Sequence record: MH706966
Length of the DNA: 54,655 nt
DNA from: Enterobacteria phage mEp021
Strand: one strand, 5' to 3'
Part shown: in pieces, positions 4,630-11,814 of the stretch
How positions within the stretch are numbered: the first letter of the stretch is position 1
Layout of the letters: each line of letters begins with the position of its first letter
Translations under genes and position numbers: made by a program
Notes under the pieces: generated by a model
Told to the model about the DNA's origin: nothing
Databases searched by the model: none
Seen by the model: the letters and a program-made list of their open reading frames with translations, nothing else

Positions 4630-6045
4630 TTAAAAAGATGCGTTATTCTGGTTGTTTCGTTGGTTAAATCTGCCTGTGCGGTGATTCATAGACTGAATAC
4701 ACGCAGCAGCCGCGCGTGCCTGGTCGCATGGTAAAATGTTGCCGTTATCATCAAACCGCTGGTAAACAGTGCCAGATTTACCATGACGGTTTTTCGATAC
4801 AATGATTTCCATATATTCGCGGGCTACAGACTGCTCATCGTAATATCCATCGCGGTAAACCATGATGATCCTGTCAGCATCTTGTTCAAGGTTCCCGGAA
4901 TCGCGCAGATCTGAATTGTTAGGACGCTTGTTCGGTCGCTCCTCAACGCGGCGTGACAACTGCGCCAGCGCTAACACTGGAACGCGCAATTCTTTTGCCA
5001 TCATCTTCAACGACCATGACAATTGCCCAACAGCGAGATCATGACGTTCAGCCTTAGCCAGCTTCATCAACCCGATGTAGTCAATCATTACCATACCCAG
5101 GTTAGGATGTTCCTGTTTCATCCGTTCCGTGGTGGCGCGTATTTCCTCAACCGTTAACTGCGACGCGTCAACGATCCACACATCAAGATTAGCAAGTGCG
5201 CTCATACCCTTGCCGACATGCGCCCACCCCTCATCATCAAGTTTTACCGGATTACGCAGGCAGTCTGTTGATAAATTACCAGCGCCAGCTATAGCGCGTT
5301 CAGTCATCTGATCGAGTGACATTTCAAGCGTGAAGAACAAAACGCCAACCCGCTGATCTTTACTGCCAGGGTAAGGGCGCTCAGCGGCAGCGCGGGCAAT
5401 TGTCAGCGCCAACGCAGATTTACCAGACCCAGGGCGTCCAGCTAAAAGCACCAAATCAGTAGCGTTAATGCCTCCCAACATCTCATCGAGTGGATCTATC
5501 CCTGTTTTGATGTTGTCAGAATTAACACCGCATTCCATGCGCTTGCTTAAAACGTCCGTATATTCCTGTACCGCATCACGCAACAGAACAGGAATGATCT
5601 TATCTTTCGTTACCTTTAATTTTGAATACCGGGAATCAAAATCTTTCATCGTCTCTTTGACGACCTCAAGCGTCCCCGTCTCCAGTTTGTAGCGCATATC
5701 GTCGATGAGTTCCAACATCTGCCGCCGCTGGTGCTCTTCACGTAGTAGCTGTGCGTATCCCTTCAGGTTGGCAGCAGACGGGCACGATCTCGCCGTTTGC
5801 ATTAGCGGTACAAAGTTTTCGTTGCCAATCTCATCGCCAACCAATAACGCGTCAATAAGATTCCTGTTTCTGGCTTGCGCCCTGATAATTTCAAACGCAC
5901 GTTTATACAGCGGAATCGTGAACACTTCAGGATCAAGAGTGGCGAGAACATCTTGCGCGTTAGGAGTAAGGCCGCCCAACAGCAGCCCACCGATAACTGA
6001 CGCCTCACGTTCCTGCCGTAGTGAGTTTATTTGCTCAGTTACCAT
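4630..6045 (-). CDS. dnaB: Replicative DNA helicase, DnaB family
   Basis: 471 aa; Walker A GRPGSGKSALALTIA; DnaB-like N-terminal domain and overall pattern. Confidence 0.85.
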   Translation of the reverse strand: MVTEQINSLRQEREASVIGGLLLGGLTPNAQDVLATLDPEVFTIPLYKRAFEIIRAQARNRNLIDALLVGDEIGNENFVPLMQTARSCPSAANLKGYAQLLREEHQRRQMLELIDDMRYKLETGTLEVVKETMKDFDSRYSKLKVTKDKIIPVLLRDAVQEYTDVLSKRMECGVNSDNIKTGIDPLDEMLGGINATDLVLLAGRPGSGKSALALTIARAAAERPYPGSKDQRVGVLFFTLEMSLDQMTERAIAGAGNLSTDCLRNPVKLDDEGWAHVGKGMSALANLDVWIVDASQLTVEEIRATTERMKQEHPNLGMVMIDYIGLMKLAKAERHDLAVGQLSWSLKMMAKELRVPVLALAQLSRRVEERPNKRPNNSDLRDSGNLEQDADRIIMVYRDGYYDEQSVAREYMEIIVSKNRHGKSGTVYQRFDDNGNILPCDQARAAAACIQSMNHRTGRFNQRNNQNNASF

Positions 6046-6079: not shown

Positions 6080-6586
6080 TCAGGGTAAAGAAATACCGTG
6101 ATTGCTATGAAAGTTATACATTCTTTCAGCTTCTTTTCTTGCTTTTACGGCATCATCAAATGAGTCACCGTAATAAACGTACATTGTTTTCTTTTTCCCA
6201 TCAGACCCCCTTATACCTATTTGCGCCCGCCATTTATGGGTTTTCTTGTTCCACGTAACGCCAACGCATCCGCTAGTATTACTTGATGGCATTGTTTTGT
6301 TTCTGTTATTCTCCTTCCTTGTCACTATCCTTAAGTTTTCGATTCTATCGTCACCAGGTACATGATTTATGTGATCTATTTCCATTCCATCAGGAATAGG
6401 GCCGTTAAACATTTCCCAGATAATGCGGTGACGCCATGTGCAACAAATACCATTAACGCGTATAGTCCAATATCCGCGATAATGTTTACATCCAGCCACG
6501 CTACCTGCTTTTATTTTGTTATTTGCACGGTTACAAGACCAATATAGAACGCCGTCGCTATATGTAAATAAATCATCCCACATCAT
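6080..6586 (-). CDS. HNH homing endonuclease with AP2-like domain
   Basis: EIDHINHVPGDDRIENLRIVTRKENNRNK HNH motif; start taken at the internal ATGATG (6586) that overlaps the stop of the upstream gene; paralog of 45958-46524. Confidence 0.65.
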   Translation of the reverse strand: MMWDDLFTYSDGVLYWSCNRANNKIKAGSVAGCKHYRGYWTIRVNGICCTWRHRIIWEMFNGPIPDGMEIDHINHVPGDDRIENLRIVTRKENNRNKTMPSSNTSGCVGVTWNKKTHKWRAQIGIRGSDGKKKTMYVYYGDSFDDAVKARKEAERMYNFHSNHGISLP

Positions 6587-7703
6587 GACACCCAACCATT
6601 TCAGGCCTATATACAAAGCGACCAATTTCGCCATAATCAGGGCTGTAAATGATAACCGCCGCGCAACGTTGCGATCTCCAGCCTCCATTAGTTGAATAAG
6701 CGTCTTTTCCCGCTAACGTGCCGTGGTGTTCAACTATGCCTATAGATGATTCTGTTACTGATTTATGGTGCAAATGTCCGACATGGACGTAAACATATTT
6801 CGACTTGCCAAAATCCTCACGCCAGTCAGCTACGCAAGCAGACAATAAATTTTCAGGCTTTTTGATAGTGTGCCCGTGGTGGTAAGCAAGGAATGTTTTT
6901 CCGTACTGTGTGTGGTGGACGATGGCAGGGGACACATCAACCGTCACGCGCGGTTCATCTTCGTAAAAAGCCGCCAGCGCCGCACGTAGCCAGATCATTC
7001 CTGACTGGTCGTGATTGCCGGATAACACCTGGATTTCAACATCCTTATGATTTAATAACATCTTCCCTACCGCCCGCCGGACAGACCGGATCGCTACATA
7101 AACAAGTTTTGCGTAGCGACTATCTTGATCAAGAATGTGCCCGCTTGTTGGTGTCACCGGGACCATACCGTCAGAATGAAGTAGATCGCCACCGAGGAGC
7201 AGTACTGCTTTTTCAGACATAGGAGCAGCGCCAACCGCGTAGTCAAAGAAGTCATTCAACACGCGCTCAGCGATCCCAGTATCGTAGCTCTCACCGCATT
7301 CAGCTTTATGAGCAAGTGCCCCGATATGCAGGTCAAACACCGGATAAAGAGCCAGGCTTTTTTGAAAATCAATTTCCGGCACTGGCACTGCCTCCGCGCG
7401 TGGTATTTCTTCCGTGAATGCGTCGCGGGCGGCTTCCATTAGCCTTTCCATTTCATCGCGATCACGGGCTGTTTTAATCCAGCGCATGACCGTATTACCA
7501 GCCTTATCGACAAGAACAGATTCACCAGTAACGCCAAAACCCGGTGCGCGGCGCGTTGATAATAAACCGCGTTTCGCCAGCTTTGCGCCAAGCCGCTCGA
7601 CGTTGCGTTTTGACATGCCATATTTTTCGGCGATCTGTTTATACGTTAAACCGTTGTTATATTCAGCGATCAATTGCTCATCGCTTATCTTTCTTTGCGA
7701 CAT
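6573..7703 (-). CDS. HTH domain fused to calcineurin-like metallophosphoesterase (Mre11/SbcD or lambda-PPase-like)
   Basis: 376 aa; N-terminal LTYKQIAEKYGMSKRNVERL HTH; phosphoesterase motifs LLGGDLLHSDG, LSGNHDQ, HHGH, HVGHLHH. Confidence 0.6.
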   Translation of the reverse strand: MSQRKISDEQLIAEYNNGLTYKQIAEKYGMSKRNVERLGAKLAKRGLLSTRRAPGFGVTGESVLVDKAGNTVMRWIKTARDRDEMERLMEAARDAFTEEIPRAEAVPVPEIDFQKSLALYPVFDLHIGALAHKAECGESYDTGIAERVLNDFFDYAVGAAPMSEKAVLLLGGDLLHSDGMVPVTPTSGHILDQDSRYAKLVYVAIRSVRRAVGKMLLNHKDVEIQVLSGNHDQSGMIWLRAALAAFYEDEPRVTVDVSPAIVHHTQYGKTFLAYHHGHTIKKPENLLSACVADWREDFGKSKYVYVHVGHLHHKSVTESSIGIVEHHGTLAGKDAYSTNGGWRSQRCAAVIIYSPDYGEIGRFVYRPEMVGCHDVG

Positions 7704-7736: not shown

Positions 7737-9224
7737 TCATTGGCAGAAAACAATCTCTTTAAATGCTTTTTCTACCATGTCGAATACTTCCGGCCTGTAA
7801 TAGAAAAACTCATTGCTTCCATCAAATTTCACAGGAAAATTGATTTTATAATTACTAAAAGCCTTATGCATCGTGTTTTCTAGTTTATGTATACTTTCGG
7901 TTGGCCCTTCTAACGTTTTCACGACACACAAATCAGGGATTCTAACACCTGCTTTATGTGCGCTTTTTAATATCCGATTTCTTCGCTCGTTCTCCTTAAC
8001 ACTTACGCCGATTTTCATTTGTGTAGGTAATTCCAGATCATCAACCATGATGTAAAGTTTGCCATAATCATAACGAAAGAAACCGTATTTAGCGCATTTT
8101 TGGCAACCCCTACCGCGCTTAAGTTCTCTAGGTCTAACCGACCACTTATGATTACAAACCTTACAGCGGCATGATACTTTTTTATTTACGTTCGTTATTT
8201 CTCCCAGCACTTCAACATCAGGATTAACCTTAGCAATAGCTAAAACATGTTCTTCGTGCGTTATAATCTTCCCAGCACATTTTGGGCAACCCTTCCCGCG
8301 TTTAAGGTTGCTAGGAGTAACCGACCACTTATGATTACAAACCTTACAGCGGCATGATACTTTTTTATCTACGTTCGTTATTTCTCCCAGCACTTCAACA
8401 TCAGGATTAACCTTAGCAATAGCTAAAACATGTTCTTCGTGCGTTATAATCTTCCCAGCACATTTTGGGCAACCCTTACCGCGCTTAAGGTGGTTAGGTC
8501 TAACTGACCATTCATGATCACAAACCTTGCAGCGGCATAATACTTTTTTGTCGCCACCTGTAATTTCACCCAGCACTTCAACATCAGGATTAACCTTCGC
8601 AATGGCAGCAATTTGTTTATAATGTGATAGTCTTAGTTTTTGTGCAATTTTCACACATTTACATTTCGGGCAACCGCTCCCGTGTTTAAGGGCGTCAGGC
8701 GTAGCCGACCATACACGATCACAAATCTTGCAGCGGCATAATACTTTTGTTCTGCTATTAACAATTTTCCCCAGCACTTCAACATCAGGATTAATTCTTG
8801 AGATGGCGGCGATCTGTTCTTCGTGTGATAATCTTTTTGGCCCTTGCTTTAACATTGCGCATTTCGGGCAACCATTCCCGCGTTTAAGGTTGCTAGGAGT
8901 AACCGACCACTCATGATCACAAACCTTGCAGCGGCATAATACTTTTGTGCTGTTATTTATTATTTCCCCCAACACTTCAACATCAGGATTAATTTTAGCA
9001 ATAGCCGCAATTTGTTCTTCGTGGGATAGCCTTGCGTTCCCAGCGCATTTTGGGCAACCTTTACCGTGTTTAAGGTTGCTAGGAGTAACCGACCATTCAT
9101 GATCACAAACCTTGCAGCGGCATAATACTTTTTCCCGGCTTCCAGTAATTTCTCCCATCACTTCAACATCAGGATTAACTTTCGCAATAGCTGCAACCTG
9201 TTCTTCGTGTGTTAGCTTGCACAT
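7737..9224 (-). CDS. Protein with six tandem Zn-ribbon modules and a C-terminal GIY-YIG-like (T5orf172-type) domain
   Basis: 495 aa; six ~55-aa repeats HEEQVAAIAKVNPDVEVLGEI...C.C..C.H.W...P..L..G.GCPKC; C-terminal GKLYIMVDD...KIGVS...RRNRIL pattern; repeats 5 and 6 are near-identical at DNA level. Confidence 0.55.
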   Translation of the reverse strand: MCKLTHEEQVAAIAKVNPDVEVMGEITGSREKVLCRCKVCDHEWSVTPSNLKHGKGCPKCAGNARLSHEEQIAAIAKINPDVEVLGEIINNSTKVLCRCKVCDHEWSVTPSNLKRGNGCPKCAMLKQGPKRLSHEEQIAAISRINPDVEVLGKIVNSRTKVLCRCKICDRVWSATPDALKHGSGCPKCKCVKIAQKLRLSHYKQIAAIAKVNPDVEVLGEITGGDKKVLCRCKVCDHEWSVRPNHLKRGKGCPKCAGKIITHEEHVLAIAKVNPDVEVLGEITNVDKKVSCRCKVCNHKWSVTPSNLKRGKGCPKCAGKIITHEEHVLAIAKVNPDVEVLGEITNVNKKVSCRCKVCNHKWSVRPRELKRGRGCQKCAKYGFFRYDYGKLYIMVDDLELPTQMKIGVSVKENERRNRILKSAHKAGVRIPDLCVVKTLEGPTESIHKLENTMHKAFSNYKINFPVKFDGSNEFFYYRPEVFDMVEKAFKEIVFCQ

Positions 9225-9600: not shown

Positions 9601-10608
9601 TCAAATAGCGCCTGCGCGTGTATCGCGTAGCGTTTTTGGTTTAAGCAGGAAATCAAGTGTCGCAGTGAAGCCATTGCCGAAGTAAAAGTCTGAAGCCGTG
9701 TTTTTAAACGCCTCAAAGTAAGCAATAAAGCCAGTGATGCTTTTGTCTTTCAGGTAGTCAGTGAACGCATAGATCTTGCGTTCAAGATCCCGATCCAGTT
9801 CAGCAGGTGGCAACAGGCCATCAAACGTGCTGTTAAATGCTTCCACTACGTCGGCAGCGTTTGCAGTGACTGACAGTTTGCTCCATTGTTCAGCATCAGC
9901 CAGATACCCATCGAATTTAGTTACCCGGCAAATGTTAACAGGCTTAGGCACTCCACCACGGCCACGCCATTGCGTTAAAGCCCACTCAATCACTAATGTG
10001 ATCTCACCCTCCGTATACGCTTTGCGTGTTTTTGTTTCTGTCAGTAGTTCTACGAATGGCTTTGCATCACGACATTTGCATCCTGCCTTGTCGTTGTAGA
10101 AGGACAGGCAACGCAATGCCGCCAGATTAACCTCCCGATCTTCTTCGCTGATAGACTCGTCTTTTTCCAATACACGAAGTGTATTGTTTTTAATGTTCTC
10201 TTTACTGGTTATATATGACTGATTAGGGTTGCTCTCTGCCACTACCCCCGGTTGCTTTGTGCCACTACCCTGGTTGCTCTCTGCCACTACCCCCGGTTGC
10301 TTTGTGCCACTACCTGACAGTGAAGGTAAAACGATTACATAGAAATTGCTCGTTTGTTCTTTCCCTCCTATTAAATATCGAGGCTGTTTTAGTAATAAAC
10401 CTTTTTTGCAAAGAGCCTCGATTGCTCTCATTGCCGTACTTTTGTTTATTTCGCATTGCTTTGCTATGTGCTGGTAAGAAGGGTAGCACTCTCCGTTATC
10501 GTTAGCGTTATCAGCCAACTTTAACAGCACAAGTTTGTGCATTGGGTTGCCGACTTCAGTATGAAAGACTTCAACCATTAGCCGCATACTCATAAGCATT
10601 AACCTCAT
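9601..10608 (-). CDS. Replication initiator, phage O-like
   Basis: N-terminal winged-HTH pattern KLVLLKLADNANDNGECYPSYQHIAKQCEINKSTAMRAIEALCKKGLL; iterons embedded in the coding sequence; true start probably the internal ATG at 10593 with a gaggt SD. Confidence 0.7.
   Translation of the reverse strand: MRLMLMSMRLMVEVFHTEVGNPMHKLVLLKLADNANDNGECYPSYQHIAKQCEINKSTAMRAIEALCKKGLLLKQPRYLIGGKEQTSNFYVIVLPSLSGSGTKQPGVVAESNQGSGTKQPGVVAESNPNQSYITSKENIKNNTLRVLEKDESISEEDREVNLAALRCLSFYNDKAGCKCRDAKPFVELLTETKTRKAYTEGEITLVIEWALTQWRGRGGVPKPVNICRVTKFDGYLADAEQWSKLSVTANAADVVEAFNSTFDGLLPPAELDRDLERKIYAFTDYLKDKSITGFIAYFEAFKNTASDFYFGNGFTATLDFLLKPKTLRDTRAGAI
10227..10314. repeat. Four tandem ~22-bp iterons (ggttgctYtSTgccactaccc), candidate replication origin
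   Basis: Direct repeats at 10227-10249, 10250-10271, 10272-10294, 10295-10314, inside the O-like gene (encoding SGTKQPGVVAESN twice). Confidence 0.6.
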
Positions 10609-10614
10609 GACGAA

Positions 10615-10860
10615 CTAAAACATTAACTGATAAACACAGAAGAAGCCTGGAAGCTGGCTAATCAGGCCGCTTCTTTTCAGTTGATGCAGTGCAGAGATAG
10701 TGTCACGTAACGAAATTTCGCACATTTCCGCGATCTCTTCCGGAGTTACTTCGCTTTTGCCGTTGCATCCGGCCTTTGTTGCCAGTGCAATTAAGATAAG
10801 TTTTTGCACATGATCATTGTTATTCAGGCGAATATCAAAAGCCTTGCGAACGTAATACAT
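10615..10860 (-). CDS. Small winged-helix DNA-binding protein, first gene of the leftward operon (Cro-like by position)
   Basis: 81 aa; KLILIALATKAGCNGKSEVTPEEIAEMCEISLRDTISALHQLKRSGLI resembles the N-terminal domain of the O-like protein; divergent from cI; SD aggaga. Confidence 0.45.
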   Translation of the reverse strand: MYYVRKAFDIRLNNNDHVQKLILIALATKAGCNGKSEVTPEEIAEMCEISLRDTISALHQLKRSGLISQLPGFFCVYQLMF

Positions 10861-11166: not shown

Positions 11167-11814
11167 ATGAAAACAAAATGGTATGACTTAGCAAAACAAC
11201 TCATGCGGGCGCAGGGCATGAGCCAGGATTCATTGGCTGATCTTATGGGGATCACAAAAGGCGGCCTTTCTCACTGGCTGAACGGTAGACGTGAGCCAAA
11301 TCTTGAAGATATTGCGCGTATCATGCGGGCGCTTGGGCGTCGGCAGTTCACTGTCACACATGATGGAATGGTCATTGATGATTCTGTTTCTAACACGTTG
11401 CCGGGAGCGCCGCCGCGTGATTTAGGTAGTTACCCGGTTGTTGACTGGAAGGATGTAGTAAACAATATGGAAGATGCAAGGCGATCAACATTACCACACG
11501 TTACGACTAGCGTTATTTGTTCAGATGATAGTTATTGGCTGGTAGCTAAAGGCGAATCAATGAACGCGCCGCAAGGATTGAGTATACCAGCGGGGACGAT
11601 GATACTTGTCGATCCGCACGCGCCAGCTATTGACGGCAAACTGGTTATAGCCCAATTGGAGGAGGGGCAGGTACCGACGTTTAAACAGTTGATTATTGAT
11701 GGAGGTCAAAGACTTTTGCGTTCGCTCAATCCGCTGTATCCGCCAATCCCTATGAATCCAGAATCAAAAATTATAGGCGTGGTGGTTGATGCGAAGATCG
11801 TAAACCTGCCATAA
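11167..11814 (+). CDS. cI: CI-type repressor (HTH plus S24 LexA-like peptidase domain)
   Basis: 215 aa; N-terminal HTH QDSLADLMGITKGGLSHWLNGRREP; C-terminal AKGESM...DGKLVIAQL S24 autocleavage pattern. Confidence 0.85.
   Translation: MKTKWYDLAKQLMRAQGMSQDSLADLMGITKGGLSHWLNGRREPNLEDIARIMRALGRRQFTVTHDGMVIDDSVSNTLPGAPPRDLGSYPVVDWKDVVNNMEDARRSTLPHVTTSVICSDDSYWLVAKGESMNAPQGLSIPAGTMILVDPHAPAIDGKLVIAQLEEGQVPTFKQLIIDGGQRLLRSLNPLYPPIPMNPESKIIGVVVDAKIVNLP

Follow-up and report, generated by a model that had tools for sequence, protein, structure and literature searches.

Four direct repeats lie inside the replication-initiator gene of Enterobacteria phage mEp021, a temperate E. coli phage (sequence record MH706966), and a comparative analysis leads us to conclude that they are very probably the iteron set of a phage replication origin, that is, the initiator's own binding sites embedded in the gene that encodes it. 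The window referred to below is the whole 54,655-nt stretch of this phage, in which the initiator gene occupies the minus strand; unit sequences are given on the coding strand. A sequence-only reading of this DNA had put the array forward as the probable origin, and the comparative evidence assembled here supports that proposal: an adjoining A+T-rich tract, constraint acting on the repeats as DNA, linkage between the array and the N-terminal domain (N-domain) of the initiator, and a helicase gene in the same operon all agree with it. By analogy, the initiator is a functional counterpart of the lambda O protein, from whose family its HTH_36 winged helix sets it apart. Origins of the lambda type are a known kind; what is newer is how large and how coherent the HTH_36 iteron class is, together with an ultraconserved 9-mer element that accompanies it.

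The four direct repeats of ~22 bp that the sequence-only reading had placed at 10227-10314 are found at exactly those coordinates, both by Tandem Repeats Finder and by a separate repeat search. The former resolves the stretch either as 2.0 exact copies of a 45-nt unit (score 176) or as 3.9 copies of a 23-nt unit (score 134), and the latter reports two 43-nt copies with 100% identity. Each 45-nt unit consists of two copies of a 22/23-nt sub-unit, and the 20-nt core present in the four copies reads GGTAGTGGCA[C/G]A[A/G]AGCAACC, with a start-to-start spacing of 23/22/23 nt, or about two helical turns. The repeats also lie, as had been read, within the initiator coding sequence (gene nt 295-382, codons 99-128 of 335), the cores beginning at gene nt 295, 318, 340, and 363 in reading phases 0, 2, 0, and 2. 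When the entire window was scanned with the degenerate 20-nt query GGTAGTGGCANANAGCAACC, allowing up to three mismatches, four matches were returned, all of them exact and all in the array, against a chance expectation of 0.04 and with four or more matches in 0 of 100 shuffles; Tandem Repeats Finder detected no other origin-type array of comparable form in the window. DnaA boxes (TTWTNCACA) number five in the window, where 6.7 are expected, with none in the array or the A+T-rich tract and the nearest at 10802, and a promoter scan around the array gave background levels. A literature search by sequence string returned primer noise only, and 'gtgcaggagattcac' occurred in no paper.

The adjacent A+T-rich region that had been suggested as a check on the origin is present: it follows the array directly on the 3' side of the coding strand and has a GC fraction of 0.283 over 10157-10216 and 0.225 over 10177-10216. 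This tract has the lowest GC content in the initiator gene, and an equally low value is reached in only 1.4% of 60-nt segments and 0.6% of 40-nt segments of the window; the minimum of GC content over 40 nt (GC40, 0.225) falls at gene nt 393 and begins 11 nt past the array. The longest invariant run of the gene among nine close homologues (type A, defined below), 26 nt at 10193-10218, falls in the same tract, where nucleotide diversity drops to 0.019. The tract ends in a palindrome (Table 1) that, together with the T-run that follows it, has a terminator-like score on the antisense (+) strand and that alone stands out when the array and tract are folded as single-stranded DNA (z=-1.49).

The window is ~90% identical to Escherichia phages mEp010, mEp044, mEp554, and mEp013, in which the gene is annotated as 'DNA replication protein O'. 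We assembled the genes that share the initiator's C-terminal domain (C-domain) from 42 IMG/VR loci and these four mEp phages, and they fall into two types. Type A comprises ten genes (the window and L001-L009) with an HTH_36 N-domain, and a 22/23-nt array is found at the same place in all ten, so the comparison with related initiator genes that was proposed along with the origin finds the array kept in every homologue sharing this N-domain. Nine of these genes have four iterons and L009 (IMGVR_UViG_2737471838_000004) has six, at gene nt 277-412, organized as three exact 45-nt units with a spacing of 23/22/23/22/23; this natural variation in copy number parallels the four iterons of lambda versus the six of Shiga-toxin (Stx) phages. 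Type B comprises 37 genes from sister mEpimmI-like phages that have the same C-domain (~85-90% identity), the same genome position, and the same order of array, A+T-rich tract, and palindrome, whereas the N-domain belongs to a different family, Lin1244_N, and the array at the equivalent place consists in 37/37 genes of four to five units spaced by exactly 11 nt, with GGTCATG or CCATGG cores. Thirty-five of them have four GGTCA[T/G]G cores, which recur every 11 nt exactly and fall in phases 1, 0, 2, and 1; the other two carry five CCATG[G/A/T] cores, and their N-domain is only 80.5% identical as against 90.3% for the C-domain. The type-B array is followed by an A-rich tract with a GC40 of 0.20. 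Homology between type-A and type-B genes starts at the palindrome ATACACTTCGTGTAT, which marks a module junction because it is the first sequence that the two types have in common, and the comparison therefore indicates that the N-domain, the array, and the A+T-rich tract are exchanged together as one unit.

Within type A, the iterons occur in three variants: A1 (window, L008), with GTGGC-N5-GCAAC; A2 (mEp010, mEp044, mEp013, L005, L006), with GTGAC-ACAGA-GTCAC; and A3 (mEp554, L007, L009), with GTGTC-AGAGA-GACAC or the perfect palindrome GTGTCAC-A-GTGACAC. The variants are homogeneous in each genome, copies being 91.3% identical within a genome versus 81.4% for copies of the same ordinal compared between variant groups. 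In 37 of 42 units, arm position 4 changes in step with its partner, the two being G:C, A:T, or T:A. The N-domains of A1-A3 are distinguished by ten residues, eight of which map to the predicted helix-turn-helix (HTH), ORF (open reading frame) residues 45-68 (p=2.4e-4). The three variants, found among otherwise ~90%-identical mEpimmI phages, may act as specificity switches in which changes in the recognition helix are matched by changes in all iteron copies.

The initiator comprises, in order, the N-domain, a predicted disordered linker encoded by the array and the A+T-rich tract, and a helical C-domain. Its N-terminus matches Pfam HTH_36 (residues 21-72, E=1.1e-14) and, weakly, DnaD_N, and the protein is placed in several PHROG 'replication initiation (O-like)' families; NCBIfam holds no family for it, and a PDB sequence search returned nothing significant. 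An AlphaFold2 (AF2) model built on a 31-sequence alignment (mean predicted local distance difference test score, pLDDT, 84.6) shows a winged-helix N-domain (model residues 1-94) and an all-helical C-domain, both confident, separated by model residues 95-140 with pLDDT <50, which correspond to ORF residues 100-145 and exactly to the product of the array and tract. These two DNA elements are thus predicted to encode a disordered linker, and the 15 extra residues in L009, as well as the variable amino acids of the region, are compatible with a linker that tolerates change. In the mechanism we propose, the winged-helix N-domain would bind the four units, whose apparent partial dyad symmetry makes dimers the probable binding form; the nucleoprotein complex so formed would destabilise the adjoining A+T-rich tract (10157-10226); and the helical C-domain would bring in the phage's own DnaB-like helicase.

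The closest known parallel is the origin of lambda. In published experiments on lambda and the Stx phages P27 and 933W, O dimers bind the iterons, which lie beside an A+T-rich tract in the middle of O, and plasmid replication is lost when the iterons are mutated without altering the protein (PMC7466680). In the lambda record, O contains four 18-nt iterons at gene nt 349-433 with a spacing of 20/24/23 and phases 0, 2, 2, and 1, and its GC40 minimum (0.20) begins at nt 436, 3 nt past the array. The window shares with lambda and the Stx phages P27 and 933W a set of four (or six) ~18-20-nt iterons, apparently with partial dyad symmetry, located mid-gene in several frames, a separation of about two helical turns, an A+T-rich tract immediately 3', and a site between a DNA-binding N-domain and a C-domain. 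In contrast, the window N-domain is of the HTH_36 family and lacks BLASTP similarity to lambda O, its iterons read GGTAGTG-N9-AAC rather than ATCCCTCAAAACGAGGGA, and the helicase partner is a phage DnaB-like protein, with no lambda-P-like protein among the proteins scanned in the replication module, a scan that covered part of the window ORFs. The lambda-like arrangement invoked in the sequence-only reading therefore stands as to order and position, whereas its description of the protein as O-like fits architecture and role only, since the protein is HTH_36 and not Phage_rep_O. Homology to lambda O was considered and rejected: BLASTP gave spurious short matches only, the C-domain is also dissimilar, and the initiator does not match Phage_rep_O (PF04492) at E<=0.01, a family that lambda O matches at 5.7e-36. 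The two kinds of domain do occur in reciprocal mosaics in PHROG, phrog_391 joining a window-type N-domain to a lambda O C-domain and phrog_345 a lambda O N-domain to a window-type C-terminal end, and window-type and lambda-O-type domains therefore substitute for one another in nature. A 9-mer pair, described below, follows the window iterons; lambda was not searched for such a pair.

The N-domain belongs to a very large class. It retrieves 4,681 cluster representatives at E<=1e-3 from a library of 1.84 billion proteins, and the matches cover either residues 6-~130, with varied C-termini, or residues ~150-335, with varied N-termini, a two-way pattern from which it follows that the mosaic break falls in the origin/linker region. 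The domain (HTH_36, beginning MSM.LM...) is 52-61% identical to at least 534 IMG/VR relatives and to 151 phage records. Among 77 distinct loci in this identity range, 75 contain two to six GTG-N9-CAC units, mostly five, spaced by 21-24 nt and located directly past the N-domain; the window itself is one of the two loci that fail the strict pattern, and variants A2 and A3 fit it. The array of the class starts ~90-100 codons into the gene, and the window conforms. The HTH_36 'O' genes of this class (phi24B O, Min27 O, ST64B sb42, mEp460, and those of Haemophilus prophages) share with the window a homologous N-domain (52-61%) and two to six units of the GTG-N9-CAC type directly after it, followed by a AACCAGTCA pair, whereas their C-domains (lambda-O-type or other) and helicase partners (P or primase-helicase) differ, and the window departs from them in having AAC in place of CAC and 9-mers 14 rather than 17 nt apart. 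Haemophilus prophages carry GGTAGTGAAAAWWTTGCACT units and a lambda-P homologue among the next genes, the 'O' of Stx phage phi24B carries three copies of GGTGGGGCAGGAGCTGCCC, and the pattern also occurs in Vibrio D67, Pectobacterium ZF40, and Stenotrophomonas BUCT708, with a replicative helicase gene directly after the initiator in the latter two and, in BUCT708, an initiator that is a full-length homologue of the window's. No paper describing the origins of these HTH_36 'O' genes was found in the literature searched.

Some members of the class are incomplete in sequence records. The Haemophilus influenzae contig JALPGN010000003.1 (L048) ends inside the homologous gene ~130 nt beyond the array, three H. 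influenzae homologues of 142-161 residues (P0015, P0016, and P0018) are labelled 'partial', and the gene of L049 and L050 is broken into two ORFs a short way past the array region. Tandem repeats may break assemblies or gene calls and so hide origins of this kind in draft genomes.

Three to four nucleotides past the last iteron, 75 of the 77 distant loci have at least two copies of a 9-mer, NAYCAGTMA, usually separated by 17 nt (14 nt in the window). The pair, whose consensus in the class is AGAACCAGTCACTCTTTWGAACCAGTCA, is present in the window, L048, L050, L131-L134, and most of L054-L130. The 37-nt element that contains the pair is 92.4% identical among Vibrio, Haemophilus, Pectobacterium, Stenotrophomonas, and E. 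coli, as compared with 63.8% for the N-domain coding sequence next to it. Where a residue is invariant in all five genera, its codon is identical at 7/7 positions in the element versus 1/36 in the N-domain (p=2.5e-7), a figure inflated because the search pattern fixed many of those bases, although the element also stands out in the raw sequences. Three frames are used in its translation, which reads as RTSHSFEPVNEP in most loci, as PESVTLLNQS in L049, P0051, and P0064, and as PNQSYITSKEN in the window, and it contains GTCAC, resembling the right half of many iterons. We speculate that the element belongs to the origin, either as auxiliary initiator half-sites or as an unwinding or helicase-entry signal. 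Taken jointly, the ideas that the 9-mer pair is an undescribed, DNA-constrained origin element and that A1, A2, and A3 are replicon-specificity switches form a tentative proposal, whose chance of being right we would put a little short of even.

An origin is not the only use to which such repeats could be put. The units might bind the initiator or another protein and yet serve regulation, through autorepression, copy control, or titration, with replication starting elsewhere. Plasmid iterons, which usually lie outside the rep gene, also act in control; a gene for a second, stand-alone HTH_36-like protein of 81 residues, which resembles the initiator N-domains, lies directly upstream of the initiator; and the evidence that places initiation at the array is comparative. 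The window N-domain shows structural likeness to plasmid iteron-binding winged-helix initiators (PDB 4pql, 4pt7, 5kbj, and 4pta) as well as to RctB (5ubd) and DnaD-N (2vn2), a likeness that is insufficient for a specific relationship because it is no stronger than that to many MarR/ArsR-type regulators. We regard a purely regulatory array as improbable, since it is coupled to the strongest A+T-rich tract of the gene, in the same order as in the lambda origin, and since the window contains no other iteron-like array. The 81-residue protein was rejected as the iteron binder: it is identical in A1 and A3 phages, despite their different iterons, and missing from L007 and L008, both of which keep their arrays.

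The origin reading also has to be weighed against the idea that slippage or duplication produced the repeat incidentally, in a disordered linker that tolerates it, and that it specifies at most a repeated peptide and has no function as DNA. The 45-nt units are 100% identical (two in the window, three in L009), which points to recent duplication or conversion, the copy number varies from four to six, and the encoded segment is predicted to be disordered. However, at 22/23 nt the sub-unit does not correspond to a whole number of codons, and it occurs in two reading frames, the same DNA being translated in alternate iterons as GSGTKQP and GVVAESN, and the reading frame is kept through the array because 23- and 22-nt spacings alternate. 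Among nine type-A genes, third codon positions are variable in only 6 of 30 array codons, compared with 184 of the 281 codons outside it (Fisher p=1.9e-6), while amino acid changes occur at 17 of the 30, the opposite of ordinary coding constraint; all 42 units of the ten genes agree at core positions 1-7, 9-10, 15, and 18-20, and variation is confined to positions 8, 11-14, 16, and 17. The repeats are thus constrained at the DNA level rather than at the protein level. Slippage, moreover, would not predict the adjacent invariant A+T-rich tract, the arrival of a different array with a different N-domain, or the recurrence of one skeleton in 75 of 77 distant loci with different sequences, and we consider this origin of the repeat quite unlikely. 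That the units are hairpins in the initiator mRNA, pausing or regulating translation for example, is suggested by the perfect short palindromes of relatives (GTGTCAC-A-GTGACAC) and by the G:C, A:T, and T:A covariation of their arms, yet it is very improbable given that the predicted RNA fold of the window array is no more stable than that of shuffled sequence (-27.0 vs -28.05 kcal/mol, z=+0.33), that the arms are mismatched centrally in all four window copies, and that a hairpin would leave the switch of array along with N-domain unexplained.

Several observations weigh against an iteron origin in this phage and temper our preference for it. Support for binding and for origin function in this phage group is comparative throughout, and origin function is inferred by analogy because no sequence relationship between the initiator and lambda O can be detected; likewise, the helicase-recruiting role of the C-domain is a guess because no solved structural relative of this domain was found. 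The window units, like those of L008, read GTG-N9-AAC and are thus one base off the class skeleton (CAC to AAC) in all four copies. They are also less dyad-symmetric than those of relatives: the window arms GTGGC/GCAAC are complementary at four of five positions, with the central mismatch in every copy, whereas relatives have perfect dyads (GTGAC/GTCAC; GTGTCAC/GTGACAC), and the pair 5/11 is complementary in 46 of 48 distinct units. The iteron and N-domain variants lie <300 nt apart, so their association could reflect linkage and not co-adaptation, and L007 pairs A3 iterons with an N-domain that has A1 states at three variable positions (Q46, Q51, and I63). The cumulative GC-skew minimum lies near 9-11 kb, but it is non-discriminating because it coincides with the switch between divergent transcription units at ~11 kb. 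Finally, iterons, an origin, and a helicase all go unmentioned in a 2025 paper describing the mEpimmI group.

The initiator gene lies in the leftward early operon, opposite a cI-type repressor (11167-11814, HTH_3 + Peptidase_S24), and is followed 3' by endonuclease-like genes, an exonuclease-like gene, and then the gene for the DnaB-family helicase. The features discussed here are collected in Table 1.

Table 1. Positions of the proposed origin elements, the initiator gene, and associated genes in the 54,655-nt window of mEp021
Feature	Position	Strand	Remarks
Iteron array, four 20-nt units	10227..10314	-	units 10295-10314, 10272-10291, 10250-10269, 10227-10246
A+T-rich tract, proposed unwinding region	10157..10226	.	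directly 3' of array in coding direction
First conserved 9-mer, NAYCAGTMA = AATCAGTCA	10216..10224	-	starts 3 nt after last iteron
Second conserved 9-mer = AACCAGTAA	10202..10210	-	14 nt after first
Palindrome CAATACAC-GAA-GTGTATTG, 8-bp arms	10168..10186	.	ends A+T-rich tract
Initiator gene, 335-aa ORF	9601..10608	-	conserved start MSMRLMV at 10593
Winged-helix N-domain coding region, proposed iteron-binding domain	10318..10593	-	ORF residues 6-97; Pfam HTH_36
All-helical C-domain coding region, proposed helicase-recruiting part	9604..10173	-	ORF residues ~146-335
DnaB-family replicative helicase gene	4630..6045	-	471 aa; same leftward early operon as initiator
81-aa protein in 'cro' position, stand-alone HTH_36-like domain	10615-10860	-	phrog_4617, 1.9e-9

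Several of the neighbouring genes deserve comment in their own right. In type-B phages, the small ORF equivalent to that of the 81-residue protein (L010 1501-1758; MSMHMMNEVWNVKLNSPIQKLVLMALAEKADNKG...) is similar enough to the type-A initiator N-domain to give a tblastn match, which hints that either the small upstream HTH ORF or the initiator N-domain gave rise to its counterpart. Between the initiator and the exonuclease-like gene sits a 495-residue ORF (7737-9224, minus strand) with about six tandem zinc-ribbon modules of ~61 residues (DUF4379/CapR) and a C-terminal T5orf172/MUG113 domain, classed as 'endonuclease' in PHROG; its gene contains a tandem repeat at 8091-9214 (183-nt period, 5.9 copies). 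The corresponding interval of mEp010 has only three tiny ORFs (33-51 residues), and the gene therefore looks like a mobile homing-endonuclease insertion in the replication module. The exonuclease-like gene (6573-7703, minus strand) encodes a 376-residue 'DNA repair exonuclease'-like product with an N-terminal HTH, and its 3' end overlaps by 116 nt with an HNH endonuclease gene (6080-6688, minus strand) located directly upstream of the DnaB-like helicase gene, an arrangement also present in mEp010, where the HNH gene is annotated as 'homing endonuclease'.

With the proposed origin, the gut-prevalent and recently described mEpimmI coliphages gain a testable candidate, together with a minimal replicon consisting of the initiator, the array, the A+T-rich tract, and the DnaB-like helicase. 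The alternation of 23- and 22-nt spacings illustrates how an open reading frame can accommodate a DNA repeat whose length is not divisible by three. More broadly, the lambda solution of housing the origin within the sequence that encodes the initiator's linker probably recurs, on the basis of an unrelated winged helix, across thousands of phage initiators, including the 'O' genes of some Shiga-toxin phages, and the mosaic breakpoints of these initiator genes coincide with the proposed origin. The ultraconserved 9-mer pair offers a specific new target for origin biochemistry and, if it is indeed an undescribed origin element, would be common to a very large family of HTH_36 initiators that extends from Vibrio and Haemophilus to the Stx phages of E. 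coli.

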